A program made the translations under genes and the position numbers. The notes beneath the pieces were generated by a model. It did not search any database. It had not been told where the DNA came from and saw only the letters and a list, made by a program, of their open reading frames with translations. 64,000 nt of DNA, from positions 160,001-224,000 of the forward strand of contig CAVTHS010000007.1 in the NCBI GenBank assembly GCA_963734535.1, given 5' to 3'. Positions 17,574 through 50,895 of the stretch are shown here, one piece after another; within the stretch, counting starts at the first letter, position 1, and the number at the start of each line of letters is the position of its first letter. The stretch comes from an uncultured Chloroflexia bacterium. GTDB lineage: Bacteria; Chloroflexota; Limnocylindria; Limnocylindrales; CSP1-4.

Positions 17574-17574
17574 C

Positions 17575-18024: not shown

Positions 18025-18093
18025 GTCGGCAACTGTACGGGTTCCGTGGATCCGGTCGGTCGGCCGCCCAACGACGCCCTCCGATCCTTGCGC

Positions 18094-18828: not shown

Positions 18829-19077
18829 CGCTTCGCTCCTCGTCAGAGGTTGATCACGTAAGAAGACACGGCCGGATCCGGGGGACCGGGCGGCCCGGGA
18901 CCGACGACCGTTGGCGGAGTGTGCACGCGGCCGGCAGGGCGAGGCAAGAGGGTTCTGCTCTCCGGGCCGAGCGCCCCGGAGCGACCTCGTCACCGCCCAC
19001 GACGGACACCCGGGACGCCGCCGCATTCGACACCGCCGCATCCGCCCCGTGCCGCGGGCCGACTACACTCCGTTGCG

Positions 19078-19914
19078 ATGCCCGCCGAGCAGATCGCCCG
19101 GAACCTCGCCTTCGTGAACTGGACGGTCCTTGCCGGCCTGGCCGTGGGGGCCTTCGCCTCGGTCGTCCTCCTTCGCCTGCGGACGGACGCCACGAAGGGC
19201 TACCTGGGATTCACGGGGTTGTGCGCCGCCGCGTTCGGCGGGCTGGCCTGGCTCGCCGACGGCGCGCTCCCCGCCGTCGCCGCGGCGGGCTCGCCGGTCA
19301 CGGTGGACGCCACGTGGGACCTCCTTCGTCGCGTGCTGCTGGCGATCCTGGCGCTCGGCGCGCTGGGTTACTCGATCGGCCTCTTCCGCGGTGCGCGCGC
19401 GCCGCTCCTCGGGCTCGGCACCCTCGCGGCGGGGCTCGGCACGCTCGTGGCCGGCGCGCTCACGTGGGGCGGTGGCGTGGTCGGTGCCGTTCCGCTGGCG
19501 CTGCAGCTCATCGCACTGGCGTGCGCGATCGGCGGCTCCTTCGCGGGGATGATCCTGGGCCACTGGTACCTGGTGACCCCGAAGCTCTCCACGGGGCCGG
19601 CGCTCGCCCTCACCCGGGGGCTGTTCTGGGTGGTCGCGCTGCAGGTCACGCTCTTCGCGGCGTGGGTCGGATTCGGAGGCGGCCAGAACCTGGCGCCCTT
19701 CGGGCCGCTCACCGGGCCGTGGGCGCTCTTCGTCTGGCTGCGCCTGCTGGTCGGCCTCATCTTCCCGCTCATCATCACCTGGGCGGCCGGGCAGACAATC
19801 CGGACCCGATCGATGGAGTCCGCGACCGGCCTCCTGTACATCGATGTCGGGGCGATCGCGTCGGGGACGATCCTCGCCGCGGGCCTCTACTTCGGCGCCG
19901 GCCTGCTGGTCTGA
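19078..19914 (+). CDS. Uncharacterised polytopic membrane protein (MILGHWYL motif)
   Basis: About 8 TM segments; 'GMILGHWYLVTPKLS' and 'SMESATGLLY'. Confidence 0.75.
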   Translation: MPAEQIARNLAFVNWTVLAGLAVGAFASVVLLRLRTDATKGYLGFTGLCAAAFGGLAWLADGALPAVAAAGSPVTVDATWDLLRRVLLAILALGALGYSIGLFRGARAPLLGLGTLAAGLGTLVAGALTWGGGVVGAVPLALQLIALACAIGGSFAGMILGHWYLVTPKLSTGPALALTRGLFWVVALQVTLFAAWVGFGGGQNLAPFGPLTGPWALFVWLRLLVGLIFPLIITWAAGQTIRTRSMESATGLLYIDVGAIASGTILAAGLYFGAGLLV

Positions 19915-19931
19915 GAGGGGGTAGAGGTCCG

Positions 19932-20600
19932 ATGACAACGCGTGGCGGGTTCGTCCCCTCGGTCGTCGACCGGTCCTGGATCGAGTCGGCGGCCGCTCCC
20001 CTCCATCCCGTCCTCGAGATGATCGAAGCGGCAGCTGGGCCGGACGGCATCCCGATCCTCGACCGCGAGGCGGGGCGAGTCCTGGCCGCGCTTGCCGCGG
20101 GGCGCCGCAGGGTCGTGGAGGTCGGCACGGCCTTCGGCTACTCCACCCTCTGCATGGCCCTCGGCCAGCCGACCGACGGCACGATCGCGACGATCGACCC
20201 GGATCGATCACGGACGGACCGCGCGCGAGGCTGGTGGCGGCAGGCCGGGATCCCGGAGGAGAGGATCGTCGTCGTGAACCGCCCTGCCCTCGACGCGTTC
20301 GCGGCCGGTGCCGGTGAGCCGGCGCTCGCGGGACCCTTCGACCTCGCCTTCATCGATGCGCTCAAGCACGAGTACACGGCATACGTGACGGCGATCGTCC
20401 CGCGGCTGGCCCCGGGCGCGCTGTTGATCGCGGACAATGTCCTGTGGGCCGGCCGCGTCTCGGGTGAGCGGCCCAGCAACCCGGGGGATGCCACCGATGT
20501 GCTCCGAGCCTTCGACACGGCCATGCTGCGCGACCCGCGCTTCACGGCCACCATCCTGCCGATCGGGGATGGCCTGCTCCTCGCCGGCTTCCGCGGGTGA
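19932..20600 (+). CDS. O-methyltransferase (caffeoyl-CoA/YrrM-like)
   Basis: 'VEVGTAFGYST', 'FDLAFIDALK', 'ADNVLWAG', 'LPIGDGL'. Confidence 0.88.
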   Translation: MTTRGGFVPSVVDRSWIESAAAPLHPVLEMIEAAAGPDGIPILDREAGRVLAALAAGRRRVVEVGTAFGYSTLCMALGQPTDGTIATIDPDRSRTDRARGWWRQAGIPEERIVVVNRPALDAFAAGAGEPALAGPFDLAFIDALKHEYTAYVTAIVPRLAPGALLIADNVLWAGRVSGERPSNPGDATDVLRAFDTAMLRDPRFTATILPIGDGLLLAGFRG

Positions 20601-33153: not shown

Positions 33154-33384
33154 ATGGGGTGCTGGCACGGCGGTTTCGTCCATTGCGGGCCCGCGGCGCC
33201 GTGCTGCTACGACCCGGCCGGCGTGGATGACCGGTATCCGGCCGTGACCTGGCCGCGGCGCCGCCGCGCGCGGCCCGAGGACCGCGAAATGCGGGCAGCG
33301 TCGCTCGAAGAGAGATTGGACCAGCTGCACGAGGAGCTCCGGCGCGTCGAGGCTGCCCTCGCCGAACTCGGTACGCAGGACTGA
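33154..33384 (+). CDS. Small Cys-rich coiled-coil protein (DUF5320-like)
   Basis: 'GCWHGG..HC...CC' followed by the coiled coil 'LEERLDQLHEELRRVE'. Confidence 0.65.
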   Translation: MGCWHGGFVHCGPAAPCCYDPAGVDDRYPAVTWPRRRRARPEDREMRAASLEERLDQLHEELRRVEAALAELGTQD

Positions 33385-33421
33385 CAGTGGAACAGGCGGG
33401 AGCCCGACAGGAGCGTTGACG

Positions 33422-33925
33422 ATGCAGGCCTTGCCCAAGGTGTCTCACGAGCACCACGACCGACTGTGGCATTACGTCGACCAGCTCAACACCCTGGCCG
33501 ACTGCATGAACACGGATTGCCTGGACACGGCCAGGCTCAGCGAGCGCCTGCCTGAGCTGCGGGACTTGCAGCTCGGGCTGACGAGCATGCTGATCCCCCA
33601 CATGGAAGCAGTCGAAGCGGCCGTCTACCCCACGCTCGAGCGTCTCTTGGCGGATCGCCACACGACGGCCCCAATGGCGCTCGAGCACGGCGAGATCCGT
33701 CGACTTGTCGGGGCGATCGGCGAGTTCGCCGAGCACCCGCAGGCCCACGCGGACCGGGGCGCCGTCCTGGCGCTGCGCCGTGTCCTGCTGCGGCTCCACG
33801 CTCTCCTCAGCGCGCACCTCTCGGAGGAGGAGCTCTACATCCCGATCCTCGAGGACAGGCTGACGCCACCGGAGGAGGCGGCGCTCGCGAGGGCCCTCGA
33901 CCACGTGGCAGCGGAGCGGTTGTAG
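33422..33925 (+). CDS. Hemerythrin-like (HHE) domain protein
   Basis: 'HEHH','PHMEAVE..VYP','LEHGEI','HLSEEE'. Confidence 0.82.
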   Translation: MQALPKVSHEHHDRLWHYVDQLNTLADCMNTDCLDTARLSERLPELRDLQLGLTSMLIPHMEAVEAAVYPTLERLLADRHTTAPMALEHGEIRRLVGAIGEFAEHPQAHADRGAVLALRRVLLRLHALLSAHLSEEELYIPILEDRLTPPEEAALARALDHVAAERL

Positions 33926-34080
33926 GCGGGAGTGACAGCATGCGTGCAGCACGTCCAGGCTTCGAGGTCTGAACCTGGGCCGGGCCGACCGAGTGGTCGG
34001 CGATCGAAGCAGTCACCGGTGCGTGGCCGGCCGGTGCGAGGGCCACTTCCGGCCAATCGACATCGAGATGCAGGGAGAAC

Positions 34081-34488
34081 ATGACCAGGATTGCTGCCGT
34101 CTCTGAAGACGGCGTGACGATCAGCCAGCACTTTGGCCGCGCCCCGTTCTACGTCGTGGTCCGCGTGGAGGAAGGCAGGGTCGTCTCACGCGAGACACGG
34201 GACAAGCTGGGTCACGCGCAGTTCGCGGCGGAAGGCCACGAGGCGCCGCCCGACGCGGACCCCCGTGGGCACGGCTTCGATCCCGTTGCCCAGGACCGGC
34301 ATGGGAGGATGGTCGCCGTCATCGCTGATTGCCAGGTCGTGCTGGCCCGGGGAATGGGCGCAGGTGCCTTCGCGAGCATGCAGCACGCGGGCATCGAGCC
34401 GGTCGTGACGGACGTCGAGAACATCGATGCAGCCGTCGAAGCGTACGTTGCGGGCGCGCTCCGCAACCACGTCGAGAAGCTCCACTAG
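34081..34488 (+). CDS. NifB/NifX family (FeMo-cofactor-binding domain) protein
   Basis: 'ISQHFGRAPFY','DCQVVLARGMGAGA'. Confidence 0.85.
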   Translation: MTRIAAVSEDGVTISQHFGRAPFYVVVRVEEGRVVSRETRDKLGHAQFAAEGHEAPPDADPRGHGFDPVAQDRHGRMVAVIADCQVVLARGMGAGAFASMQHAGIEPVVTDVENIDAAVEAYVAGALRNHVEKLH

Positions 34489-38808: not shown

Positions 38809-39195
38809 CTAGTGGACCAGGAAGATGCTGCCGAGGAGAATCACGAGTACCCCGAGCGTGATCGCGACGTAGAGGCCGTCGGCCTCGAGCCAGAAGCCGA
38901 CGACGCTCGTCGCGACGCGCAGGACCGGCGTGGCGAGCAGGACGACCAGCCCGGCCTGGGCGAACGCGACGGGGCGCAGCGCCAGCAGCCCGGAGACCAG
39001 GTACGAGAAGTCGGTCGGGGCCGCGGCCGTGGGCGGTGCCCCGAGGAGCGAGCCGTTCCAGCCAACCAGGAGTGACATGGCAAAGCCCACGGTCGTGAGC
39101 GTGGCGGCCGTGACCACGCCGGTGCGCAGGACCGCGCTCACGACGGCGCGAAACTGGTCGGGAGTCAGGCGCTCTCGCCGGGCGTCCCCGCTCAC
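38809..39195 (-). CDS. DUF1634 membrane protein
   Basis: 'VLRTGV','GLVVLLATPVLRV'; the usual TauE partner. Confidence 0.85.
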   Translation of the reverse strand: MSGDARRERLTPDQFRAVVSAVLRTGVVTAATLTTVGFAMSLLVGWNGSLLGAPPTAAAPTDFSYLVSGLLALRPVAFAQAGLVVLLATPVLRVATSVVGFWLEADGLYVAITLGVLVILLGSIFLVH

Positions 39196-40034
39196 GCGCC
39201 CACCCCGAACCCGCGCAGCAGCGTCTGGATCCCGATCACCACGAGCACGGGGAGGAAGATCCACCGGACATGCCGGTTCGCCAGTCGCGGCAGGAGCCGC
39301 GCACCGAGCATCGCGCCGGCCAGCACCCCGAGCGCGACCGGGGCGACCAGGGTCGGATCCACGTCGCCGCGCCCCAGGTAGATCCCGGCCGACGCGGCCG
39401 CCGTGACGCCGATCATGAAGTTGCTGGTCGCCGAGGAGACCTTCATCGGCAGGCGCATCGCGCCGTCCATCGCGACGACCTTCAGGGCGCCCGAGCCGAT
39501 GCCGAGGAGCCCGGACACGAGGCCGGCGCCCCACATGAGGGCGAATCCCAGGGGCACGCGCCGCGCGGCGTAGGAGACCTCGCGGCCGAGCCGGGCGTCC
39601 GGGTAGCTCGACGCGAGGCGGAGACGGGCGGCCAGCCCGCTCGGCTCGACCTCCGGCGGCATCTCCTCGCCGAGGCGCAGAACCTGCATGAGGGCAGAGC
39701 CAAGCAGGACGAGGCCCAGGAGGATGTAGAGGAAGGCTGGAGCGACGATTGCCGCGAGGAGCGCACCGACCACCGCCCCGGTCGTGGTCGCCAGCTCCAG
39801 GAACATCCCGATCCGCATGTCGGTCATGCGATCGCGCACGTAGGCGGCGGCCGCCCCGGAGCTCGTGGCGATGACGCTGACGATGCTCGCCCCGATCGCG
39901 AGGCGAATGTCGATTCCGAAGAGCAGCGTGAGTGTGGGCACGATCAGGATCCCGCCGCCGACACCGGCGAGCGCTCCGACCAGGCCGGCCAGGATGCTGA
40001 TCGCGAAGATGGCGCCGTCGGCTCCCAGGGTCAC
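39192..40034 (-). CDS. TauE/SafE family sulfite/sulfur-compound exporter
   Basis: 'GVGGGILIVP','SVIATSSGAA','SGLLGIGSG','SATSNFMIGVTA'. Confidence 0.9.
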   Translation of the reverse strand: MTLGADGAIFAISILAGLVGALAGVGGGILIVPTLTLLFGIDIRLAIGASIVSVIATSSGAAAAYVRDRMTDMRIGMFLELATTTGAVVGALLAAIVAPAFLYILLGLVLLGSALMQVLRLGEEMPPEVEPSGLAARLRLASSYPDARLGREVSYAARRVPLGFALMWGAGLVSGLLGIGSGALKVVAMDGAMRLPMKVSSATSNFMIGVTAAASAGIYLGRGDVDPTLVAPVALGVLAGAMLGARLLPRLANRHVRWIFLPVLVVIGIQTLLRGFGVGA

Positions 40035-40885
40035 GTGCCCGCCCCCTCGGGCGCGGGCGGGTCGAGCCCGACGGGCGGTCGACCTCGGTGGCGGAGGACC
40101 AGGACACCCAGCGCACCCGCCACCACCACCGCCGAGATGAGCATGGCCGTCGGGATCCCAAAGAAGGTCCAGTTGTCGGCCTTGAGCGTCTCGACGGCGA
40201 AGCGGACGGAGCCGTACCAGATGAAGAAGACGAGGAGCAGGTCGCCGGTCCGGAGCCGGCCGGCGAAGCGCCGGGCGATCCAGATCAGGACGATCGCCCC
40301 GATGAGCCCGGACAGCGACTCGTAGAGGAACATCGGGTGGAAGTGCTGCCCGAGGGTTGCCAACGGGTCCGAGCCCGGCGGGCACTCGTAGCCCTGGGTC
40401 CGGTACTGGCACTGGATGGCGATTCCCCACGGCAGGTTCGTCGGCGAGCCGTAGAGCTCCTGGTTGAAGAAGTTCCCCCAGCGCGCGATGGCCTGCATCA
40501 CGAAGAGCCCGGGTGCGACCGCGTCCGCCCAGGCCAGGAACGGCTGGCGCTTCCAGCGCGCGTAGCCGTAGGCGACCGCAACGCCGGCGATGATCCCGCC
40601 GTAGACCCCGAGCCCCGAGTACGGTGGCAGGACGATCCGGAGAAGGTCGTCCCTGTAGAGCTGCCACTGGTCGATGACGTGGTAGAGCCGGCCACCGATG
40701 AGGGCCGCGATCGCGACGACGATCATCCCGTTCGGGAGCAGCCCGACGTCCAGCCCTCGCCAACGGGCCTCGCGGCTGATCACGAGGTAGACGGCCGCGA
40801 GCCCGACCGCGTAGGCGATCCCGTACCAGTGAACGGCCAGCGGCCCGATCGAGAAGGCGATCGGGGACGGCGTGATGTCGATCAC
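40031..40885 (-). CDS. lgt: Prolipoprotein diacylglyceryl transferase
   Basis: 'VHWYG','GGRLYHV','ARWGNFFNQELYG','HPMFLYE','RFAVE'. Confidence 0.9.
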   Translation of the reverse strand: MIDITPSPIAFSIGPLAVHWYGIAYAVGLAAVYLVISREARWRGLDVGLLPNGMIVVAIAALIGGRLYHVIDQWQLYRDDLLRIVLPPYSGLGVYGGIIAGVAVAYGYARWKRQPFLAWADAVAPGLFVMQAIARWGNFFNQELYGSPTNLPWGIAIQCQYRTQGYECPPGSDPLATLGQHFHPMFLYESLSGLIGAIVLIWIARRFAGRLRTGDLLLVFFIWYGSVRFAVETLKADNWTFFGIPTAMLISAVVVAGALGVLVLRHRGRPPVGLDPPAPEGAGT

Positions 40886-41198
40886 GGGTGGAATGGCAGG
40901 CGGAGCCGGCGTGCCTCGGTGGCTGCGGTCAGGGAAGGGCTCCGGGCGGGAAGGTCATGGGCCCTGTCGGTCCTCGTCGGTGGCCACGATCATAACCGAC
41001 GAGGGCGTTGGAGAACCCTGACCGGGCCAACGGTCCGGACGGCCCGCCTTCTCGTGACTAGTGGCCCGGCATGTATATAGGCTGTCCGCATATATTCAGG
41101 CTACACAGATATGCCGTTACAGCGGCTATCTACCCCGCGCAGATATGCATCGAGAGCACTCCCCGGATCTGCTCGAACCAGGAGGCCCACGCGGCACG

Positions 41199-41579
41199 AT
41201 GGAACGCCAGAGCGCAACGCATGACATCGACGAGCTCCAGGCTTCGATGCTGCGGTCGTTGGCCAGTGCCCACCGCCTTCGGATCCTGCACCTGATCGGC
41301 GCCCAGCCGTGCGAGGTCAACGAGATCGCGCGTGAGCTGGGCCTGAACCAGGCAGCGGCATCGCAGCACCTGGCTGCCATGCGGTCCGTCGGCCTCGTGG
41401 AAGCCATCCGTGACGGGCGGACCGTCCGATATCGCCTCGCCGATCCGCAGATCCTCGCGGCCTGCGAGCTGATGCGCGCGGTCCTCGTGCGCCGGCTCTC
41501 GAGGCTGGGCGACCTGGCCGCGGCGGCCCACGAACCAGCCATCCACATCCTCACAGCCACCGAGGTACCCCACCCGTGA
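41199..41579 (+). CDS. ArsR/SmtB family regulator heading the Hdr/Qmo-like operon
   Basis: 'LASAHRLRIL','SQHLAAMR','YRLAD...ACELMR'. Confidence 0.88.
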   Translation: MERQSATHDIDELQASMLRSLASAHRLRILHLIGAQPCEVNEIARELGLNQAAASQHLAAMRSVGLVEAIRDGRTVRYRLADPQILAACELMRAVLVRRLSRLGDLAAAAHEPAIHILTATEVPHP

Positions 41580-41983
41580 GCGATTCGCTGTCACTCGTCC
41601 TCTTCTCCGGCACGGATGACAAGCTCATGGCGGCGGCCACGCTCGCTGCCGGCGCTGCCGCGATGGGGGAGACGGTCAACGTGCTCCTGATGTTCTGGGC
41701 GCTCGACGCGTTCCGAACGGACCGCGTCTCGACCAAGCACGGCCTGGCCTACGACGCGGCACGCCCGCGACCGACCGAGCCGGTCGAGAAGGTCGGCGCA
41801 TTGCCCTGGCTGGAGACGTTCCGCCAGGCCAAGGAGATCGGCGAGATGAACGTCCGGGCCTGCTCCGGCTCGCTCGACACGCTGGGCCTGGACGTGACGG
41901 CGCTGGACCCGATCGTCGACAGCGCCGGCGGGATCGCGTCGTTCCTCATGGCGTCCGAAGGCAGCCAGATCCTCTTCATCTGA
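41576..41983 (+). CDS. DsrE/DsrF/DrsH-like protein (soluble DsrE2-type)
   Basis: 'LVLFSGTDDKL','GAAAMG','FWAL','RACS','ILFI'. Confidence 0.85.
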   Translation: MSDSLSLVLFSGTDDKLMAAATLAAGAAAMGETVNVLLMFWALDAFRTDRVSTKHGLAYDAARPRPTEPVEKVGALPWLETFRQAKEIGEMNVRACSGSLDTLGLDVTALDPIVDSAGGIASFLMASEGSQILFI

Positions 41984-42047
41984 TCGCCGCGGGCGACGAA
42001 CCGCCACCGGCGGACGGATCGCCCCGCGCGACGACAAGGAGCAGCAC

Positions 42048-42431
42048 ATGGCGGACACACAGCAGGCGGACACCCAGAAGCTGGTGTTCATGGTCCTGCA
42101 CGGCCCGGACCATCCCGAGCACGCGACGATCCCGTTCGTGATGGGCTGTGCGGCCCTGGCCTCCGATGTGGAGGTTGTCCTGGGCTTCCAGGCCGAGGGC
42201 GTCGAGCTGGTGCACGCGGGCGTTGCGGACGGCATCCACGCCGCCGGGTTCCCGCCTCTCGCGAAGCTGATGCACGACTACCGGGAGCTCGGTGGGTCAA
42301 TGCTGGTCTGCGGACCGTGCATCAACAGCCGCGGGATCACCGCCGCGGACCTCATCGAGGGCGCCGAGATCGTCGCCGCCGGTCGCTTCGTCGCCGAGAT
42401 CACGTCGGCCACCAACAGCCTCGTCTACTAG
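42048..42431 (+). CDS. DsrE family sulfurtransferase-like protein
   Basis: 'HGPDHPEHATIPF','EGV','VCGPC..RGI'. Confidence 0.85.
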   Translation: MADTQQADTQKLVFMVLHGPDHPEHATIPFVMGCAALASDVEVVLGFQAEGVELVHAGVADGIHAAGFPPLAKLMHDYRELGGSMLVCGPCINSRGITAADLIEGAEIVAAGRFVAEITSATNSLVY

Positions 42432-42444
42432 GGAGTACGGAACC

Positions 42445-42711
42445 ATGTCTGCCATCGCCACCGAGACCGAGCTCGAAGCCATCACCGCCGACAAGATCGT
42501 CGACGCCCGCGGCGCCGCCTGTCCGGGACCGCTCCTCGAGGCCAAGAAGGGCATCGGCACGGTGCCCGTCGGCGCCGTCATCGAGATCTGGTCCAGCGAC
42601 CCGGTCACCAAGAGCGACATCGGGGCGTGGTCCGGGAAGGTCGGCCACGGCTTCCTCGGCGTGCTCGTCGCCGACGGGTACGAGCGGGTCTTCGTGCGTC
42701 GCCAGAAGTAG
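42445..42711 (+). CDS. tusA: TusA family sulfur carrier
   Basis: 'VDARGAACPGP','SSDP..KSDIGAW'. Confidence 0.9.
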   Translation: MSAIATETELEAITADKIVDARGAACPGPLLEAKKGIGTVPVGAVIEIWSSDPVTKSDIGAWSGKVGHGFLGVLVADGYERVFVRRQK

Positions 42712-42781
42712 CCAGCCAAGGACGGCCCGGCGGGCGCAAGCGCATCCGCCGGGCTGATCGGAGCCAGGAGCGACCGTCCCA

Positions 42782-43226
42782 ATGACCGCGTCCGCCGCCG
42801 GAGGAGCCCTGCTGGAGGCACCGGCCTTCGTTCCACGGATCCTCGTCTTCTCGACGAACAACATCTCGGACCCGGGCATCGACCTGGCCGGCAGCTCGCA
42901 CATGCACTACACGCCGGGCGTGCATGGTCATGCCGATGCCCTGCACCAGCGGCATCAAGCCCGCCTGGATCGCCCATGCGATCGCGACGGGCTTCGACGG
43001 CGTCTTCGTGGCGTCGGACGGCGACGAATGCGCCTACCTGCCCGACTGCGCTGAGCGCGCCTCGCGAATCATGGCGGAAGCGCAGGCGCTCCTCAAGGCG
43101 GCCGGCCAGTCGCCGCAGCGGCTGAAGATGGCGGCAATCTGCTCGGTCTGCGCCGAGCCGTTCACCCGGCAGGTGACGCAGTTCGCCCAGGCGCTCGCCG
43201 CCCTCGGGCCCTCGGGGGTGCGCTGA
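42782..43226 (+). CDS. mvhD: MvhD/FlpD-like Fe-S subunit with non-canonical Cys pattern; 1-nt frameshift near 42922
   Basis: 'PRILVFSTNNISDPGIDLAGSSHMHY' plus 'PCTSG...GFDGVFV...ECAY...ICSVC'. Confidence 0.75.
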
Positions 43227-43229
43227 GCC

Positions 43230-45950
43230 ATGGACTATGACGTTCTCGTCGTCGGCAGCGGCATCGGGGGCATGGAATCCGCCCTGAAGCTCGGCGACAT
43301 GGGGTTCAAGGTTCTCGTCGTGGAACGCGAAGCGAGCGTGGGCGGGAAGATGATCCTGCTCAGCAAGGTGTTCCCCACGCTCGACTGCGCCAGCTGCATC
43401 TCGACGCCGAAGATGGCGGCCACGATCCACCACCCGAACATCACGACGTACACGTACAGCGAGATCGACGGGATCGAGCCCCACGGCGACGGTCGCTTCC
43501 GGGCCCGCATCACGCGCAAGGCGCGCTTCGTGGACGAGTCGGCCTGCACCGGCTGCCAGAAGTGCGAGATGGCCTGCACGGTTGCCGTGCCGGACCAGTT
43601 CAACGCCGACCTGGTGGCGCGCCGCGCCGCCTACATCGCGTTCCCCCAGGCCGTCCCGAAGAAGGCGGTCATCGACCGCGCCGGCAGCTCGCCCTGCTCG
43701 TATGCATGCCCCGCCGGGATCCAGGCGCACGGCTACGTCTCCCTCGTCCGCAGCGGGGAGTACGAGAAGGCGTACCGGCTGGTGCTCGAGGCGACCCCCC
43801 TGGTCGGGACCCTCGGTCGCGCCTGCTATGCGCCCTGCGAGACCGAGTGCACCCGCGGCTCCCTCGAGGGAACGCTCCCGATCCGCCTCCTGAAGCGGTT
43901 CGCCTCCGACCGCCACGACGAGACGGCGGACGGCCCCGGCATCGAGGTCGCCGAACCGAACGGCCGGAAGGTCGCGGTCGTGGGCTCCGGCCCCGCGGGC
44001 CTCACCGCGGCCTGGCAGCTTGCTCGCCGCGGCTACGCCGTGAAGATCTTCGAGGCCGCCCCGGAGCCGGGCGGGTTCCTTCGCCTCGCAATCCCGTCCT
44101 ACCGCCTCCCGATCGAGGTGGTCGAGCGCGACATCGACAACGTCCGGGCCATCGGCGTGGAGATCGCCACGAACAGCCCGGTCCGGGACGTGGCCGCCCT
44201 CAAGGAGGCCGGCTTCGACGCGGTCCTCCTGGCGACGGGCACCCCGCGCTCGACCGGCATCGGGGTTCCCGGCGAGGATCGCCTCGGCGTCTTCGGCGGC
44301 ACCGACTTCCTGCGCAAGGTGAAGCTCGGCCAGCCGATGGACCTTACCGGCAAGCGGGTGGTCGTGATCGGCGGCGGCAATGTCGCGATGGACACCGCCC
44401 GGACGGCTCGCCGCCTTGGTGCCGCGTCCGTGACCGTGGCGTACCGGCGCGGCCGCGCGGAGATGCCGGCCCACCACGTCGAGGCCGACGACGCCGAGCG
44501 GGAGGGCGTGGCCTTCAGCTTCCAGGTCGCCCCGGCCGAGGTCCTCGGCGACGAGCACGGCGCGGTGAGCGGCCTGCGCTGCATCCGCATGACGCTCGGC
44601 GCCCCGGACGCGTCCGGCCGGCGCCGCCCCGAGCCGGTCCCGGGCAGCGAGTTCGTGCTTCCCTGCGAGATCGTCGTCGGGGCCATCGGCATGACCGCCG
44701 ACACCGGCGCGTTCGCGAACCACATCGCGACGAAGGCGAATGGCACGCTCGAGGCCGACGCGACGTCCCGCCAGACCGGCCTGCCGTACGTCTTCGCCGC
44801 CGGCGACGTGGTCAACGGGGCGACCGACATCACGCGCGCCGTCGGTGAGGGTCGCCGCGCCGCCCACATGATCGATCGCTGGTTGACCGGCGGGACGCTC
44901 GACGGGTTCGACGACCGGCTGCCGGTGGTCGACAAGGCGCAGGTCGTCGCCCGTCAGAAGGCCTACTCGCTCCGGGCCGCGCTGCCCAACGGGACGACCC
45001 TGGTTTCGAACCCGGCCGACTTCTCCGAGGTGGAGGCCCCGCTGACGGAGGCGGAGGCGCGCGGGGCCGCGGGCCGCTGTCTCGACTGCGCGGTGTGCAG
45101 CGAGTGCGGGGAGTGCGTCGATGCCTGCCCGGTCGACGGGTGCATCGATCTCCATGCCCGCGACGAGAAGCTCGAGGTCGAGGTCGGCGCCGTGGTGGTC
45201 GCCACGGGGTTCAAGCTCTTCGCGGCCGACCTGAAGCCCCAGTACGGCTTCGGGACATACAAGAACGTCATCACGGGCATGCAGATGGACCGCCTGCTGG
45301 CGCCGACGCGGCCCTTCAACACGATCCTGCGCCCCGGCGACGGCAAGGTCCCCGAGCGGATCGCCTACGTGCTGTGCACGGGCTCCCGCGACGAGACGGT
45401 GAACAACCCGCTCTGCTCGCGGTTCTGCTGCATGTACTCGATCAAGCAGAACCAGCTGCTGATGGGCGCGCTCCCGCTCGCGGACGTGACGGTCCACTAC
45501 ATGGACATCCGGGCCGCGGGCAAGCGCTACAACGAGTTCTACGAGCAGGCGAAGTCCATGGGCGCCACCTACGTCAAGGGGAGGGTGGCGAAGATCACCG
45601 AGAAGGACGACGGCAACCTGGTCCTGCGTTACGAGGACATCGAGAATGGCGGGAAGCTCGTCGAGGCGGAGTACGACCTGGTCGTGCTCGCGGTCGGCGT
45701 GCAGCCCAACAGCGACGCGGAGGGCCTCTTCCCGGCCGGCGACCTTGCCGTGGACGAGTTCCGCTATGTCGCGGAACCGAACGAGGACCTCGATCCGGGT
45801 GCGACCAGCATCCCCGGGGTCTACGTGGCCGGCGCCGCCTCCGGTGCCAAGGACATCGCCGACTCGATCCTCCACGCGGGATCCACGGCGGCCCAGGTGG
45901 CGGCGCATCTCGAGCGCGCCCGCCTCGAGAAGGCAGGGGTGCCGGCATGA
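43230..45950 (+). CDS. hdrA: HdrA-like flavoprotein with inserted GltD/NfnB-type NAD(P)H module (HdrL-like)
   Basis: 'GSGIGG','KVFPTLDCASC', ferredoxin motifs, insert 'GSGPAG','GGGNVAMD','YRR','AAGD', then 'CTGSRD','CSRFCCMYSIK','GAKDIADS'. Confidence 0.88.
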   Translation: MDYDVLVVGSGIGGMESALKLGDMGFKVLVVEREASVGGKMILLSKVFPTLDCASCISTPKMAATIHHPNITTYTYSEIDGIEPHGDGRFRARITRKARFVDESACTGCQKCEMACTVAVPDQFNADLVARRAAYIAFPQAVPKKAVIDRAGSSPCSYACPAGIQAHGYVSLVRSGEYEKAYRLVLEATPLVGTLGRACYAPCETECTRGSLEGTLPIRLLKRFASDRHDETADGPGIEVAEPNGRKVAVVGSGPAGLTAAWQLARRGYAVKIFEAAPEPGGFLRLAIPSYRLPIEVVERDIDNVRAIGVEIATNSPVRDVAALKEAGFDAVLLATGTPRSTGIGVPGEDRLGVFGGTDFLRKVKLGQPMDLTGKRVVVIGGGNVAMDTARTARRLGAASVTVAYRRGRAEMPAHHVEADDAEREGVAFSFQVAPAEVLGDEHGAVSGLRCIRMTLGAPDASGRRRPEPVPGSEFVLPCEIVVGAIGMTADTGAFANHIATKANGTLEADATSRQTGLPYVFAAGDVVNGATDITRAVGEGRRAAHMIDRWLTGGTLDGFDDRLPVVDKAQVVARQKAYSLRAALPNGTTLVSNPADFSEVEAPLTEAEARGAAGRCLDCAVCSECGECVDACPVDGCIDLHARDEKLEVEVGAVVVATGFKLFAADLKPQYGFGTYKNVITGMQMDRLLAPTRPFNTILRPGDGKVPERIAYVLCTGSRDETVNNPLCSRFCCMYSIKQNQLLMGALPLADVTVHYMDIRAAGKRYNEFYEQAKSMGATYVKGRVAKITEKDDGNLVLRYEDIENGGKLVEAEYDLVVLAVGVQPNSDAEGLFPAGDLAVDEFRYVAEPNEDLDPGATSIPGVYVAGAASGAKDIADSILHAGSTAAQVAAHLERARLEKAGVPA

Positions 45951-47747
45951 GCCAGCCGGAGCTCGATGGCGCGGTCCCCGGCGCAGCCCCCGTCCCCGGT
46001 GAGGCTGTCCCCGGGGCGCGTCGGATCGGCGTCTACGTCTGCCATTGCGGCGGAAACATCTCCGACTACGTTGACGTCGCGAAGGTCGTCGAGTCCGTCC
46101 AGGGAGATGGCGACGTCGCCATCGCGCGGACGGCCATGTTCGCCTGCTCCGATGCCTCCCAGCAGGACATGATCGACGACATCCAGCAGAACAACCTCGA
46201 CGGCCTGGTCGTGGCCTCGTGCTCGCCCAAGCTCCACACGTTCACGTTCCGGGCGGTCGCCACGCGCGCCGGGCTCAACCCCTACGAGTACTCGCAGGTC
46301 AACATCCGCGAGCAGTGCTCCTGGATCCACAGCGACGACCGACCGGGCGCGACCACGAAGGCCATCGGTCTCGTGGAGGCGGGGATCGCCCGAACGCGCC
46401 TGACCGAGCCCCTGGTGCCGATCGTGGTGGAGACCACGCCGAAGACCCTCGTCATCGGTGGCGGGATCGCGGGGCTCCGGGCGGCCGTCGGGCTCGCCGA
46501 CATCGGTCTCGAGGTCGTGGTGGTCGAACGCGAGCTGACACTGGGCGGCTGGGTGGGCCGCTTCGGCGAGATGTACCCGCACGGCAAGGACGGTCGCACC
46601 CTCATTGCCGGCCTCGTAGCCGAGGTCAAGAAGCGGCCGGCCATCACCGTGCTGACGGGTGCCGACGTCGTCGGGAAATCGGGGAGCTTCGGTAACTACG
46701 ACGTCGAGGTGCGCGTCGGCGGCCCCGGCGCGGGAAGCATCTCCGTTCGCGTCGGCTCGATCATCGTCGCCACGGGCTTCGACTCCTACCAGCCCGACGC
46801 CGGCGAGTTCGGCTACGGCATCGACGGCGTCCTGACGCTGCCCGAGTTCACGGACCTGCTCGATCGCTCGACCGGCCCGCTCGTCCACAACGGGAAGACG
46901 GTCCGCAGCGTCGTCTACGTCTACTGCGTGGGCAGTCGCCAGCCGTCCGACGGTGAGGGTGCCAACGAGTACTGCTCGCGCTTCTGCTGCACGGCCGCGG
47001 TCCACGCGTCCGTCCGGGCCGCCGGCCTCGACGCGACCGCCCGCCAGTACCACCTCTACCGCGACATCCGCACGTACGGCAAGTACGAGACCATCTACAC
47101 GGAGTCGCGCGAGCTGGGCTCGGTCTACCTGAAGTTCCCCGACGACGAGCCCCCCGCCGTGGCCCTGGGCGAGGATGGCCGGCTGGTCGTCACGGCTCGC
47201 GACCTCCTCACCGGGGGCGAGGAGCTGGCGATCCCGGCAGACCTCGTGGTCCTCGTGACGGGCATGGTCCCCCGGAAGAACGACGATCTGGTGGGCGTTC
47301 TCAAGCTCCCGCTGGGATCGGACGGCTTCTTCAACGAGATCCATCCCAAGCTGCGGCCGGTCGAGACCGTCGTGGGCGGGGTCCTGATCGCCGGTGCGTG
47401 CCAGGGACCGAAGTCCTCGTCCGAGAGCGTCGCCTCCGGCCTGGCAGCGGTCACCCAGAGCGCGGCGATCCTGCGCAAGGGCTTCGCAGAGCTCGATCCG
47501 CTCGTCGCGACCGTGACACACGGATGCCTGCACGGCCTGCGGGAAGTGCCTCGAGGCGTGTCCGTACGGCGCGATCGGGATGACCGGCCTGGATGGCCGC
47601 GAGGTCGCCGCGATCAGCCAGACGGGCTGCAAGGGCTGCGGCGGATGCGTCCCGGTCTGCCCGGAGGATGCGATCGACCTGCGCGGCTACACGGACGCCC
47701 AGATCCGGGACCAGATCGACCGCATGCTGGAGGTTCCGGTCGCATGA
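45947..47747 (+). CDS. hdrA: Second HdrA-like subunit with C-terminal ferredoxin; frameshift near 47515
   Basis: 'GVYVCHCGGNI','ASCSP','NIREQCSW','GGGIAG','CVGSR','CSRFCC','HPKLRPVE','GACQGPK'; CxxCxxC motifs after the shift. Confidence 0.88.
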
Positions 47748-47986
47748 GCACGCAGAGCAGGGAGGTCCGCGAGGTCGTCCGCGACGAGCCCGTCATGCGG
47801 GCACGCATCCTGGCGGCCGTTGCGGATGGGCCGCGAACCGTGCCCGAGATCGCGCGTGCGATCGGGAGCCCGACCCACGAGGTTGTGTTCTGGGTGATGG
47901 GGATGCGCCGCTACGGCTGGCTGCGCGAGGTCAAGGCACCCGCCGAAGACGGCTATTTCCGATACCAGGCGGAGGAGCGAGCATGA
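47744..47986 (+). CDS. Small winged-helix-like protein inside the hdr operon
   Basis: 'ILAAVADGPRTVPEIARAIG...FWVMGMRRYG...DGYFRY'; coupled by ATGA overlaps on both sides. Confidence 0.75.
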   Translation: MSTQSREVREVVRDEPVMRARILAAVADGPRTVPEIARAIGSPTHEVVFWVMGMRRYGWLREVKAPAEDGYFRYQAEERA

Positions 47987-49173
47987 CCGCGCAGGTTGAC
48001 CTGGGGCTCTACGGCGCGCTCCAGAAGTTCGGCGCGGCCGATGTCTCGGCCTGCTTCTCCTGCGGGACGTGCACGGCGACGTGTCCGCTGGTCACCGACG
48101 ACGCCACGTTCCCGCGGCGGATGATCCGCTACGCCCAGGTGGGCCTGCGCGACAAGCTGTTGTCGAGCAAGGAGCTCTGGACGTGCTACGCCTGCGGCGA
48201 GTGCTCCGAGACCTGCCCCACGCAGGCCGAGCCCAGCGAGTTCATGGCCGCCGCCCGGCGCTACGCCATCGGCAGCTACGACCGGACCGGCCTGGCACGG
48301 ACGATGTACACGCGGCCGGTGCTCGGGACCGTCATCGCGGTCTTCCTCGCGGCATTCTTCGCACTATTCATGGCATCGGGCAACGGGGTCCAGGCCACCG
48401 GATCGCTCGATCTCTTCGCGTTCGTGCCAGAGGACCTGATCCATACCACCGGCATCATCGTGATGGCGATCGTCGGGCTGGCCGGTCTCGCCGGCATCGT
48501 CACGATGGCACGCCAGGTCGGCCGTGCCGAAGGCATCGGCTGGCGCACGGTCGCCGGCAGCCGGGCGGCAATCGGACGCTCCCTGGGTGCGGCCTGGGAG
48601 GCGATCGGGATCGAGTCGCTGGGCCAGCGCCGATACCGCGCCGACTGCGACGCGGACAAGGCGGTGGTCCCCCTCTACCGCCGCCGCTGGCTCCTGCACG
48701 CGGTCACGATGTGGGGCTTCCTGGGGCTCTTTGCCGCGACGATCCTCGACTACGGCCTCGCGCTGGCGGGGATCAAGGCGACCGGGACGCCGGTCCCGAT
48801 CTGGTACCCCGTGCGCCTGCTGGGCACGATCGCCGGGCTGATGCTCGTGTACGGCACCAGCGTGCTCATCATCGACCGGGTCCGGCGCGTCAGCAGGTCG
48901 GTCGCCCACTCGAGCCCGGCCGACTGGACGCTGCTCGCACTCCTCTGGATCACGGGCGTGACGGGGTTCGCCCTTGAGCTGGCGCTCTATCTCCCGGCGG
49001 CGCCCGCGTGGGGCTACTGGGTCTTCCTCTTCCACGTGGCGGTGGCAATGGAGCTCGTGCTGCTCGCCCCGTTCATGAAGCTCGCGCACGTGCTCTACCG
49101 GCCCGTGGCGCTCTTCTTCTTCGCCCTCGCTCGGACGCCCGAGCACCTCGATCGTCAAGGAGGCACGAGATGA
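47983..49173 (+). CDS. QmoC-like subunit: HdrC-type 2x[4Fe-4S] domain plus membrane domain (putative heme b)
   Basis: 'CFSCGTCTATCP','WTCYACGECSETCP'; TM domain with 'LLHAVTMWGF','FHVAV','KLAHVLYRP'. Confidence 0.82.
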   Translation: MTAQVDLGLYGALQKFGAADVSACFSCGTCTATCPLVTDDATFPRRMIRYAQVGLRDKLLSSKELWTCYACGECSETCPTQAEPSEFMAAARRYAIGSYDRTGLARTMYTRPVLGTVIAVFLAAFFALFMASGNGVQATGSLDLFAFVPEDLIHTTGIIVMAIVGLAGLAGIVTMARQVGRAEGIGWRTVAGSRAAIGRSLGAAWEAIGIESLGQRRYRADCDADKAVVPLYRRRWLLHAVTMWGFLGLFAATILDYGLALAGIKATGTPVPIWYPVRLLGTIAGLMLVYGTSVLIIDRVRRVSRSVAHSSPADWTLLALLWITGVTGFALELALYLPAAPAWGYWVFLFHVAVAMELVLLAPFMKLAHVLYRPVALFFFALARTPEHLDRQGGTR

Positions 49174-49664
49174 CCGCCAGCCTGGAAACCATGGCCCACG
49201 TGCACAGCGAGCACCTGCTGCACGAGATCGACCGCCTGCCCGAGACCGGCGACATGGTGGCGACCGCGTCGCCGGCGGACCTCCGTGCGCGCCTCGACGA
49301 GACGCACGCCTTCCTGGCGGAGGTCCTGATCCCGCACATGGAGGCCGCCGAGCGCGCCCTTTACCCGGAGCTCGAGCGGATGTTCCAGAACGTCCACTCG
49401 ATGGCGCCCCTGCGCCGCGAGCACGGCGTGATCCGCCAGTCGACCGCCGAGCTGGCGAAGGTGCGCGAGCATCTCGGCGAGAGCCGGATCTCGATCGGCC
49501 AGTCGATCGCCCTGCGGCGGGTGATCTTCCGCCTCTACGCGCTCCTCAAGGTGCATCTCGCCGAGGAGCAGGTCTACCTCGACATCCTCGACCGGCGCGA
49601 GGCGCCGGAGATGGCCGAGGCGCTCGCGGCGGCCATGGCGCACCCGGGAAGCCCGCAGGCCTGA
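49170..49664 (+). CDS. Hemerythrin-like (HHE) domain protein, paralogue of 33422..33925
   Basis: 'PHMEAAE..LYP','REHGVI','HLAEEQ'. Confidence 0.82.
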   Translation: MTASLETMAHVHSEHLLHEIDRLPETGDMVATASPADLRARLDETHAFLAEVLIPHMEAAERALYPELERMFQNVHSMAPLRREHGVIRQSTAELAKVREHLGESRISIGQSIALRRVIFRLYALLKVHLAEEQVYLDILDRREAPEMAEALAAAMAHPGSPQA

Positions 49665-49755
49665 AACCGGGCGCCACGGGAGGCGCCGCTCATCGGGGGG
49701 ACGCGGGCCGGCCTCGCTTCGACGATACCGGCGTCCCGCCCGGAGAGGGCGTGTG

Positions 49756-50187
49756 CTACGCGACGGCTGCCCGTTCGCGGGAGGGCATGAGGCCGAGCTG
49801 GAGCATCATCCCCAGCTGGTCCGCGATGCCCCAGTGCTCGACGACGCGGCCGTCCTCGAAACGGACGATGTCGATGACGTCGATCTCCACGGGCCTGCCG
49901 CTTGGCGGGTTGCCCATCACGGACCCGGTGTTGACGCCCCGCGCGCGGTTGCGCGCCCACACGAAGTCGCCGGCGACGGCGAGATCCTCGATCGTGAGGC
50001 TGAAATCCGACATCCAGCGATGGAGCGTGCGGATGACCTCCTTTGTGCCGTCCACGCCCGAGCGGTTGCCACGCTGGTGCTCCACGCATTCCGGGGAGAC
50101 AAGCTCGTCGACCACGTCCAGGTTCCCGCCCGTGAATCCCTCCTCGATCAGCCTGCGGAATCGCTCCACGTTGCTGCTGCCGGACAT
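49756..50187 (-). CDS. SnoaL-like ester cyclase family
   Basis: 'IEDLAVAGDFVWAR','PSGRPVEI','FEDGRVVEHW'. Confidence 0.88.
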   Translation of the reverse strand: MSGSSNVERFRRLIEEGFTGGNLDVVDELVSPECVEHQRGNRSGVDGTKEVIRTLHRWMSDFSLTIEDLAVAGDFVWARNRARGVNTGSVMGNPPSGRPVEIDVIDIVRFEDGRVVEHWGIADQLGMMLQLGLMPSRERAAVA

Positions 50188-50226
50188 CTCGTCCCCCCAT
50201 CTTCTCGCCTGCGTCCTGATCGTTAG

Positions 50227-50264
50227 ATAGAGTCACACTCTATTGAGATGGAGTGATACTCTAT
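50227..50264. promoter_or_regulatory. Two tandem TetR-type operators between the divergent genes
   Basis: ATAGAGT-cac-ACTCTAT (50227-50243) and ATGGAGT-gat-ACTCTAT (50248-50264). Confidence 0.75.
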
Positions 50265-50268
50265 CGAC

Positions 50269-50895
50269 ATGGATCCTGTCAAGCCCGAGCGGCCGCAGCC
50301 CCGGCTGACTCTGCGTGCCGAGCGCGCCGAGGTAACCCGCAGCCGGATCGCGACGGCGGCGCGCCATCTCTTCGCGCGCGACGGGTACGGCGCCACGACG
50401 CTCCGGGATGTTGCCGCCGAGGCCGGCGTCGCCGTCCAGACGGTGTATGCGGTCTACGGGTCGAAGGCCGGGATCCTGAGGGCGCTCCGGGAGGGCGCGG
50501 TACGCCAGCCCGAGGCCGAGGCCGCACTGCGCGAGGCGATGCGCCAGGAATCCGCCGCGGCGAGGCTGGATCTCTTCGCTCGCTCCATCCGCCATCGCTG
50601 GGAGCTCGCGGGCGACATCGTCGCGATCAACCACGACGCATCGATGTCGGATCCGTCGATCCGGCCCGAGGTCGAGGCGGTGATGGCCATCCGTCGGAAT
50701 GGGATCGCCGCCCTGGCGCGCTCGCTCGAGGCGCACTACCGACCGCCGATGGACGTGGCCCGCGCTGGCGCGATCCTCGACACCCTGACGCTCCCGGAGG
50801 TCTACGCGGAGCTCGTCGGCGCCCAGGGCTGGACACCGGACCAGTTCGAGGCCTGGCTCGCCGCGACGCTGCGCCACCAGCTCCTGGGAGGCTGA
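50269..50895 (+). CDS. TetR/AcrR family regulator
   Basis: 'LFARDGYGATTLRDVAAEAGVAVQTVYAVYGSK'. Confidence 0.92.
   Translation: MDPVKPERPQPRLTLRAERAEVTRSRIATAARHLFARDGYGATTLRDVAAEAGVAVQTVYAVYGSKAGILRALREGAVRQPEAEAALREAMRQESAAARLDLFARSIRHRWELAGDIVAINHDASMSDPSIRPEVEAVMAIRRNGIAALARSLEAHYRPPMDVARAGAILDTLTLPEVYAELVGAQGWTPDQFEAWLAATLRHQLLGG

Follow-up and report, generated by a model that had tools for sequence, protein, structure and literature searches.

The 64,000-nucleotide stretch of DNA analysed here (the window; contig CAVTHS010000007.1, positions 160,001 to 224,000) comes from a 3.2-Mb metagenome-assembled genome (MAG) of an uncultured Chloroflexota bacterium, which has 14 contigs, a completeness of 89.9% and a contamination of 7.1%. 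The G+C content of the window is 70%, and its relatives are Chloroflexota of the Limnocylindria/Limnocylindrales group. Genes were placed by third-position G+C together with Pfam and NCBIfam. Ten co-directional genes occupy positions 41199–49664 of the plus strand: arsR, dsrE2, dsrE, tusA, mvhD, hdrL, hdrA2, a winged-helix (wHTH) gene, qmoC and a hemerythrin gene. Profile and open-reading-frame evidence agrees with the original prediction on the ten genes and their positions. The genes are packed as compactly as it had described. Five junctions have a 4-base overlap (arsR/dsrE2, hdrL/hdrA2, hdrA2/wHTH, wHTH/qmoC and qmoC/hemerythrin), and the other four have gaps of 3, 13, 64 and 70 bases. As judged from its sequence, this is a conserved operon of soil and freshwater Chloroflexota that is predicted to join three small sulfur carriers to a membrane flavin/Fe–S/haem complex with an NAD(P)H module. 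A promoter and terminator consensus scan of 40800–50300 gave 0 and 0 sites, which is uninformative at 70% G+C.

The gene hdrL (43230–45950, plus strand) encodes a 906-residue HdrA of the HdrL type, identified with Pfam, NCBIfam and the Protein Data Bank (PDB). The protein begins directly at the HdrA FAD fold and lacks the N- and C-terminal domains of methanogen HdrA. Two CxxCxxCxxxC motifs, at residues 106–116 and 623–633 of the inserted ferredoxin domain, flank a module of about 480 residues. This module is an NfnB/GltD-like NAD(P)H–FAD–2×[4Fe–4S] unit with its own dinucleotide folds and cluster cysteines. The model PRK12771 spans residues 143–651 (470.8 bits), and the NCBIfam HdrA2 model spans the ends. 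Residues from about 152 to 629 match the NfnB/Stn-type PDB chains 9bov_A, 8oh5_C, 9n5u_A and 4ylf_B; residues 623–900 match HdrA in 5odc_A with an E value of 1e-98. Both features expected of an HdrL-type fusion are present: an NfnB/GltD module lies between ferredoxin cluster motifs, and mvhD lies directly upstream. Twenty-one cysteine columns are kept in at least 68 of 69 orthologues, and C716, C729, C733 and C734 are kept in all 69. These four residues fall in the pattern CxGxRD...CSxxCC, which we take to be the HdrA cluster motif. Relatives of the protein are about 900–944 residues long, and the best 120 are at least 78% identical to it.

The second HdrA (HdrA2; 45947–47747, plus strand) has 600 residues in relatives. 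It is split in the assembly and was recovered by a three-frame reading and the match to 5odc_A. We used as reference a related locus (L008) whose DNA is 89% identical to the window operon. The HdrA2 of this locus consists of an N-terminal four-cysteine domain, the FAD domain and a C-terminal 2×[4Fe–4S] domain; it has no inserted ferredoxin domain, and it matches 5odc_A with an E value of 1.4e-110. The cluster-motif cysteines C328, C344, C348 and C349, which here follow the pattern CxGxRx...CSxxCC, are present in 68/68 orthologues. A quick maximum-likelihood (ML) tree of 16 rows, which had no methanogen HdrA outgroup and whose more careful search was unfinished, placed Apr-linked QmoA and QmoB in one clade (SH-aLRT 98), HdrL with insert-less A-type subunits (QmoA′) in another (99) and HdrA2 in a third (99). 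The tblastn scores had suggested that HdrA2 is a one-to-one orthologue of QmoB. This assignment is not supported by the tree.

Directly upstream of hdrL lies mvhD (42782–43226, plus strand), which encodes an MvhD/FlpD-like subunit of 147 residues in relatives and is likewise split in the assembly. Its C-terminal part alone passes the PF02662 threshold (68.6 bits), and the intact orthologue of L008 matches 5odc_D with an E value of 9.3e-11. The canonical cysteines of the first-strand loop, which read CCxxC in the MvhD chains of the PDB, are gone, and the position reads FSTNNIS. Five other cysteines (C54, C83, C89, C120 and C123) are each found in 72–73 of 73 orthologues from Limnocylindria and Actinomycetota. 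C120 and C123 form a CxxC that is present in 73/73 orthologues and in 30/30 rows of an alignment (A2) that includes the distant loci L091 and L092. These two are the only cysteines that survive in all versions of the subunit, and the L092 protein has no other. At the same site, the canonical MvhD chains of the PDB and the MvhD domains of Apr-linked QmoB (2/2) have S-A-S/A or T-x-x-W. The AF2 model (pLDDT 82) places the CxxC where strand 114–118 gives way to the N-terminal end of helix 124–141. In a set of 1.84 billion proteins, the best 150 representatives include 103 that cover the site. Both cysteines are present in 36 of these, the top-scoring ones; the canonical form is seen in 62 and other patterns in 5. 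On these alignments the CxxC, newly described here, is specific to this family.

The product of qmoC (47983–49173, plus strand; 396 residues) is a QmoC-like membrane subunit. The NF038018 qmoC model matches over its full length (residues 6–379 to model positions 2–360 of 360) with 196.8 bits, below the cut-off of 300. The protein combines an HdrC-like 2×[4Fe–4S] domain, which is matched by HdrC chains of the PDB, with a NarI/HdrE-like membrane domain, for which PF02665 gives a weak match. The eight cluster cysteines are kept in 58–59 of 60 orthologues and the membrane histidines H154, H239, H351 and H369 in 59–60 of 60. The anchor probably carries two haems b.

Between hdrA2 and qmoC, the wHTH gene (47744–47986, plus strand) encodes a stand-alone winged-helix protein of 80 residues, assigned from its AF2 model and Foldseek. 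It belongs to no Pfam or NCBIfam family and contains no cysteine; its 712 homologues are nearly all free of Pfam domains. The model (pLDDT 87) shows a plain winged helix with the topology H-H-H-E-E, and Foldseek returned only generic ArsR/MarR winged helices (TM 0.65–0.70). We also considered a DsrD-like protein. Profile matches in the PDB were all weak and of ArsR type (best NmtR, E 0.0057) and the Foldseek matches were generic, so this candidate was dropped.

The last gene (49170–49664, plus strand) has a start that overlaps the qmoC stop. It encodes a hemerythrin-like protein (PF01814, E 3.2e-5) that scores 24.8 bits against a cut-off of 25.3; the histidine columns are conserved. In 47 related loci a second hemerythrin gene is found on the opposite strand, some 600 bases past the downstream end of the operon. 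Hemerythrins cluster around this Fe–S-rich operon in aerobes.

All three sulfur carriers are encoded near the start of the operon, on the plus strand. The 135-residue product of dsrE2 (41576–41983) is DsrE2B-like (PF13686) and matches PDB entry 2QS7 over the full length with an E value of 9.6e-20; its Cys96 is kept in 63/63 orthologues. The 127-residue DsrE-family protein (42048–42431; PF02635, E 2e-14) is weakly DsrE3A-like, matches 3MC3 with an E value of 1.3e-4 and carries a CxxC of its own (Cys88 in 52/52 and Cys91 in 51/52 orthologues). TusA (42445–42711, 88 residues) is over the PF01206 threshold with 57.3 bits (E 1.4e-15). Its active-site cysteine, C26, is found in 70/70 orthologues, and C26-P27-G28-P29 is invariant across 31 rows. 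Co-folding of MvhD (alignment A2) with TusA (alignment A1) gave an ipSAE of 0.00 in two runs, which gives no verdict either way.

The first gene, arsR (41199–41579, plus strand), encodes a regulator of 126 residues (PF01022, E 2.4e-12). It belongs to the ArsR/SmtB family by the NF033788 model (76.1 bits against a cut-off of 55). Its score with the model for the persulfide-sensing BigR (NF040642, cut-off 155) is only 34.9 bits. About 105 bases upstream of arsR, at 41074–41094 (strand not assigned), lies an AT-rich imperfect palindrome, TATATAG-N7-CATATA. It surfaced from the comparison of loci; an inverted-repeat search upstream of arsR had given two short pairs of no clear meaning. In 23 of 40 related loci a similar motif lies no more than 170 bases ahead of arsR, whereas 8 of 2000 random 173-base pieces taken from these loci contain one. 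We regard it as a candidate ArsR operator that would overlap the promoter.

Both mvhD and hdrA2 are broken by a +1 frameshift in the assembly, a detail missed in the original prediction. In mvhD, positions 1–29 and 30–123 of the PF02662 profile fall in two frames, with the break near 42925. In hdrA2, the C-terminal ferredoxin domain shifts frame after about 47512 in the three-frame reading. Compared with L008, each gene has one surplus base, mvhD at 42923 and hdrA2 at 47516. Related loci encode both halves in a single frame (74/75 for MvhD and 69/71 for HdrA2). We compared both sites with Logan contigs. Run X1 holds 0.84 of the sampled words; runs X2, X3 and X7 hold about 0.28–0.30 and were used only as relatives at the two indel sites. 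At 47515, the X1 contigs without the base account for 16.6/16.6 of the depth (2 contigs), and one of them (257 bases) is otherwise free of differences. At 42922, contigs without the base account for 14.1/17.2 of the depth. The covering contig has 10 other differences and hence comes from a close strain, not the identical one. The surplus base near 42923 is also missing in the contigs compared across four runs. Since relatives and short-read contigs lack both surplus bases, we treated them as indel errors of the assembly; for 42923, a real strain mutation is less firmly set aside.

A recently inactivated relic in this strain, with real frameshifts, would also explain the two breaks in the assembly, and it would agree with the sole covering X1 contig at 42922 being from another strain and with our finding the operon in neither of two other genomes of the same genus. 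However, the otherwise identical contig at 47515 lacks the surplus base at full depth, and all genes except mvhD and hdrA2 are intact. HdrL is 95–96% identical to its relatives and has a third-position G+C of 0.95. Stray frame changes or split matches also occur in the same genes at other long-contig MAG loci (L056, L061 and L067; also L016, L069 and L085), so that indel errors seem common in such assemblies. We therefore consider a relic very improbable.

Relatives were collected through HdrL. Of 597 candidate stretches from species-representative genomes, 565 encode a relative of it, and 80 loci were kept. Counts in this set were made by tblastn, with many loci cut by contig ends: HdrL 80, HdrA2 79, TusA and MvhD 75 each, wHTH and QmoC 70 each, DsrE2 66, hemerythrin 58, ArsR 56 and DsrE 53. 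For 61 of these loci at least 2.3 kb upstream and at least 4 kb downstream were available. In this flank-filtered set TusA, MvhD, HdrL, HdrA2, wHTH and QmoC are each present in 61/61, DsrE2 in 57, hemerythrin in 49, ArsR in 48 and DsrE in 43. The core tusA-mvhD-hdrL-hdrA2-wHTH-qmoC is thus a distinct conserved unit, as had been proposed. That proposal depended on linkage between dsrE/tusA and the hdrA pair in other genomes, and in our survey the linkage is conserved. The operon is found in Limnocylindria, Actinomycetota and Dormibacteria. tusA directly precedes mvhD in every arrangement seen, including the actinomycetotal order tusA-mvhD-dsrE2-hdrL-hdrA2-wHTH-qmoC. Sampling of the phylum recovered a QmoC-like protein from 18 of 401 genomes, and sampling of the class the protein or operon from 17 of 101 (12/29 in family f1, 4/33 in f3 and 0/33 in f4). 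This patchy occurrence marks the operon as an accessory unit, shared across phyla.

Four short contigs (3.8–10.6 kb) assigned to Cellulomonas, Nanopelagicales, Acidobacteriota and Steroidobacteraceae (L065, L050, L017 and L036) carry an HdrL that is 79–95% identical to the Limnocylindria protein. For these, mis-binning is likelier than recent transfer.

Several variants of the operon were observed. Two more distant Chloroflexota loci (L091 and L092) have the same gene string with an A-type subunit that lacks the NfnB insert. The NAD(P)H insert of the original prediction therefore holds for the present lineage and is not universal. In L091, an MvhD-like part and the insert-less A-type HdrA share one open frame (13401–15137, minus strand) and are apparently fused. 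A gene set for CCG, Fer4_11 and NrfD-multihaem cytochrome c proteins lies divergently beside that operon. In L092 the operon continues with dsrE, dsrE2, a second tusA and a TsuA/YeeE-like transporter gene, whose product reaches 318 bits with the model for TsuA thiosulfate transporters (cut-off 400). A dormibacterial locus (L080) carries dsrE2, tusA, dsrE, mvhD and hdrL like the window; directly after its wHTH gene, in the place of QmoC, it encodes a 434-residue Fe–S/CCG (HdrD-like) protein (8605–9909), and the contig ends 64 bases further on. The description of the complex as being without HdrB thus fits this lineage and has to be qualified for Dormibacteria. An actinomycetotal locus (L015) is flanked (2200–7611 and 14984–20495) by a CoA-disulfide-reductase-rhodanese (CoADR-rhodanese) gene, a gene for an 835-residue CoADR-rhodanese-TusA-DsrE2 fusion, a weakly SQR-like gene, a cysteine desulfurase gene and two genes for CsoR-family regulators. 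From this gene content, the surroundings look like a reactive-sulfur island.

Hdr and Qmo complexes serve in methanogenesis, sulfate reduction and sulfur oxidation, each with a catalytic partner: HdrB, AprAB, or sHdrB together with LbpA. The original prediction had noted that HdrB, AprAB and lipoate-binding proteins are missing from the window. They are, and the absence extends, as far as tested, to the genome. With a cut-off of 641.75, AprA scored no higher than 24.7 bits in the own genome, and no higher than 26.4 bits among five operon-bearing relatives, two of them complete chromosomes. For HdrB (TIGR03288; cut-off 345), no protein of the own genome or of four relatives scored above 31 bits. 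No strict co-occurrence of AprAB or HdrB with the operon was therefore seen, neither AprA nor HdrB having been found in these genomes. DsrA and Sat were not found in the 89.9%-complete own genome. This genome encodes three CCG proteins, none of them in an hdr context: GlpC of a glycerol-3-phosphate set, a protein of an ars operon, and a stand-alone membrane HdrD/E-like protein. No extra GcvH/LbpA was found, since each of five genomes has exactly one GcvH-family gene. An ordinary QmoABC that serves APS reductase, or an sHdr or HdrABC system with partners elsewhere in the genome, would be in keeping with the Qmo-like subunit layout and the full-length match of the QmoC model. Against these scores and gene contexts, we regard it as extremely improbable.

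Two other partners were considered and rejected. DsrC/TusE, as a hidden "heterodisulfide", occurs in 2/5 carrier genomes, far from the operon, and is not encoded in the own genome. Full-length NiFe hydrogenase large subunits, as partners for MvhD, are present in only 2/5 carrier genomes and partial in the others, and so provide no consistent partner. A 474-residue CCG protein is encoded inside an arsR-arsD-CCG-arsA string (locus L089, G000:C8:240918-242339), which is an unusual place for a CCG protein.

Haem-copper oxidase (COX1) is encoded in 5/5 operon-carrying genomes, and we therefore read the carrier organisms as aerobes. The siroheme sulfite/nitrite reductase domain (NIR_SIR) was found in 1/101 genomes of the class, and that one is a 79%-complete MAG with the match at a contig end. 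It was not found in four Limnocylindria genomes examined, nor in two complete chromosomes. From these gene counts, the class seems to be without a siroheme sulfite reductase and unable to assimilate sulfate or sulfite, and would have to depend on reduced sulfur. A complementary distribution of the operon and sulfite reductase was rejected, as NIR_SIR is missing from 100/101 genomes with or without the operon.

The layout of the operon is closest in outline to canonical (type I) QmoABC. Each pairs two HdrA-like flavoproteins with an MvhD-like module and with a QmoC that combines an HdrC-like 2×[4Fe–4S] domain and a membrane domain of di-haem type. However, AprBA and Sat are not part of the window operon, and its QmoC-like protein stays under the qmoC cut-off. 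Two loci of the same phylum (L093 and L094; QmoC about 30% identical) show the canonical arrangement sat-aprB-aprA-qmoA-qmoB-qmoC, with neither tusA nor a wHTH gene. Their QmoB proteins carry a C-terminal MvhD domain, whereas MvhD here is encoded by a separate gene upstream of hdrL and has the CxxC. The window operon adds the wHTH gene and the NfnB-like insert in the A-type subunit, and in the quick tree its HdrA-like subunits fall outside the clade of Apr-linked QmoA and QmoB from this phylum. TusA is always attached to the core of the window type (61/61), with dsrE genes in most loci, while the Apr-linked clusters are free of carriers.

Type II QmoAB(C), the group of the QmoABC of Vulcanisaeta moutnovskia and Ammonifex degensii, in the excerpted text of Neukirchen et al. 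2023 (PMC10504309), is closer to typical HdrA than to bacterial QmoAB, and its role is given there as unknown. Nearness to HdrA fits the window operon, a likeness by description only. The excerpts mention neither a TusA/DsrE linkage nor a wHTH gene, a CxxC or an NfnB insert for type II. The same text describes QmoAB-HdrCB and QmoAB-HdrD variants, in which the membrane subunit is swapped for a soluble Fe–S/CCG protein and which serve AprBA (PMC10504309; excerpts of PMC6397845). The Fe–S/CCG protein directly after the wHTH gene of L080 resembles this exchange.

Proteins of HdrA type with an NfnB-like insert are described in excerpts on ANME-1 (HdrA9-11; PMC9012536), and HdrL of Desulfobacterium autotrophicum is an HdrA with a GltD/NfnB-like insert (excerpts of PMC2702500; PMC12142623). 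As far as those texts go, they share with our HdrL a ferredoxin domain interrupted by an NfnB-like module and an adjacent mvhD. However, these systems are soluble, occur in strict anaerobes and are encoded beside fdh, dsr or hdrBC; the window operon has a QmoC-type anchor and carriers and occurs in aerobes. In sHdr systems an HdrA-type flavoprotein is encoded with dsrE2B/dsrE3/tusA carriers (PMC11094781 and PMC4175335, both in excerpt). The window shares this association and an ArsR-type regulator gene with sHdr. In contrast to sHdr, it lacks the CCG subunits sHdrB1/B2, the sHdrC pair and an extra lipoate-binding protein, and instead has two HdrA paralogues, QmoC and the NAD(P)H module. From HdrABC and MvhAGD-HdrABC it keeps the FAD domain and the HdrA cluster motif but not the CCG-domain HdrB. 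No paper describing this operon was found in our literature searches. The accessible parts of a Chloroflexi-supergroup preprint that names Limnocylindria do not mention the operon, and those of PMC10839748, PMC13490349 and PMC6397845 contain nothing on it. New here are the CxxC of MvhD, the insert-less variants, the variant with a CCG protein for QmoC, the thiosulfate-transporter and CoADR-CsoR neighbours, and the class-wide lack of siroheme sulfite reductase.

We infer complex formation, electron path, substrate and direction from the gene content, cofactor motifs and linkage that were observed, and from the observed absence of Apr, Dsr and HdrB. The carriers are conserved with a Qmo-shaped core, canonical Qmo is free of carriers and the usual partners are absent; carrier-bound sulfane sulfur is thus the most economical redox partner. 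Quinone would be a second partner and, in the present lineage, NAD(P)H a third, and the complex probably passes electrons among these three. In the model that we favour, the operon is intact and controlled by ArsR. HdrL, with its NfnB-like NAD(P)H/FAD module, and HdrA2, with its N-terminal and ferredoxin domains, would form a heterodimer. The heterodimer would be joined by the MvhD-like protein, the 80-residue wHTH protein and the QmoC-like anchor, which would link it to the quinone pool. Sulfane sulfur, as persulfide or thiosulfonate, would be delivered to the core by TusA together with one or two carriers of the DsrE family. The CxxC of MvhD is the favoured docking or reaction site and would replace the missing CCG (HdrB) site. 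NAD(P)H would enter at the NfnB-like flavin, with a downhill branch running through QmoC to quinone; the other branch would reduce the carrier-bound sulfur and release sulfide. The role may be the disposal of reactive sulfane sulfur, and possibly the supply of sulfide in a class without sulfite reductase.

As a whole, a sulfur-carrier-linked Qmo-like complex that works in the reductive direction and reduces carrier sulfur near the CxxC of MvhD is a tentative reading, and we put it slightly below an even chance. It is favoured by the carriers, which stay with the core across phyla and through rearrangements (Actinomycetota; L091 and L092), and by the sulfur context at L092 (the TsuA/YeeE-like transporter) and L015 (CoADR-rhodanese and CsoR). 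Further points for it are the full linkage of the core (61/61), the contrast with the Apr-linked clusters, the missing usual partners, the conserved cofactor sites, the invariant CxxC of MvhD, the palindrome ahead of arsR and the near-absence of NIR_SIR from the class. A number of observations weigh against it. There is no redox-active cysteine pair beside either HdrA flavin, which leaves the sulfur chemistry without a proven site, and the CxxC could be a swapped pair of Fe–S ligands, with C54, C83 and C89 conserved beside it. Cys38 of ArsR is present in only 14/31 orthologues (Cys89 in 31/31), and the BigR score is far under its cut-off. YeeE/TsuA was found in 0/5 genomes (the own and four relatives), and the operon in neither of the two other genomes of the genus. 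With an occurrence of 17/101 in a class that lacks sulfite reductase, it cannot be the general sulfide route of the class. The insert-less versions show that the family can do without NAD(P)H. Finally, NAD(P)H-dependent persulfide reductases work alone, and a bifurcating membrane complex is not needed for the task.

The same complex could run in the opposite direction. Sulfide or carrier sulfane sulfur would then donate electrons to quinone, and in the versions with HdrL also to NAD(P)+. The complex would thereby be the carrier-based equivalent of sulfide:quinone oxidoreductase, with NAD(P)H as a further product. We consider this unlikely, though it has points in its favour. In the insert-less versions quinone and carriers are the only visible redox partners, the carrier organisms are aerobic (COX1 in 5/5), and electron flow from sulfide to menaquinone is downhill and that from menaquinol to persulfide uphill. 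Canonical Qmo, moreover, is reported to work both ways, in sulfate reducers and in sulfur oxidisers (PMC10504309, from excerpts). However, no site for S–S bond formation or sulfur oxygenation is visible, and there is neither an sHdr-type CCG subunit nor an extra lipoate-binding protein. The product, a carrier persulfide, also needs a sink, and no sulfite-forming enzyme is linked to the operon. The redox core could instead be a general NAD(P)H:quinone enzyme, possibly bifurcating and ferredoxin-reducing, for which TusA and DsrE are not substrates. The carriers would then serve regulation, the supply of sulfur for Fe–S clusters or a separate sulfane-sulfur stress response on the shared ArsR-controlled transcript. 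HdrA2 keeps the full C-terminal 2×[4Fe–4S] ferredoxin domain, which in HdrA is the usual exit to ferredoxin, and the neighbours in Limnocylindria are of the stress type (a second hemerythrin at 47 loci, PadR at 26, and fewer with ArsP, OsmC or an ECF sigma factor). The lack of a proven catalytic sulfur site would suit such an enzyme as well. It is harder to reconcile with tusA, which is present in 61/61 loci and always directly before mvhD, even in Actinomycetota, where dsrE2 lies between mvhD and hdrL; with the carrier-free Apr-linked Qmo clusters; and with a CxxC that occurs only in the carrier-linked type of MvhD. We rate a general enzyme of this kind as rather improbable.

A more specific form of the reductive reading is an HdrB-independent bifurcating enzyme. 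One part of the NAD(P)H electrons would reach quinone by way of QmoC. The rest would take a low-potential route to the CxxC of MvhD, where TusA-bound thiosulfonate or persulfide would be cleaved reductively to sulfide. We find this doubtful, and slightly more so than the general enzyme. If true, it would constitute an energy-coupled "assimilatory thiosulfate/sulfane reductase" by which aerobes that have no sulfite reductase could subsist on oxidised or sulfane sulfur. QmoC (to quinone) and the CCG protein of Dormibacteria would then be interchangeable high-potential exits.

The operon ties Hdr/Qmo redox machinery to TusA and DsrE without the known partners, in aerobic soil and freshwater bacteria, and its HdrL has relatives in at least 565 stretches of species-representative genomes. 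If the carriers are the substrate, the complex would be an unrecognised link of cytoplasmic sulfane-sulfur handling with NAD(P)H and the respiratory quinone pool, and an example of Hdr-type chemistry without a CCG site. The class-wide lack of sulfite reductase gives the physiological frame, and the conserved CxxC of MvhD makes the question testable by mutagenesis.

The genes around the operon were also compared. The recurrent neighbours in relatives are PadR (26 loci), a further ArsR (16 loci), a TehB-like methyltransferase (12 loci) and an ArsP permease (11 loci); an ECF sigma factor with its anti-sigma partner, OsmC, and a MerR regulator accompanied by a low-molecular-weight phosphatase also recur. 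By these family assignments, the surroundings of the operon in relatives are of a stress or metalloid type. In the window, a gene for a TauE/SafE anion (sulfite) exporter (PF01925, E 3.9e-47) and a DUF1634 gene lie at 38809–40030 on the minus strand. This block is about 1–2 kb upstream of arsR and in the opposite orientation, with lgt (40031–40954) in between. It is absent at this place in L008 and was therefore not taken as part of the operon unit. Further upstream in the window are a second hemerythrin gene and a gene of the NifX/Nitro_FeMo-Co family (33248–33925 and 33973–34488, plus strand).

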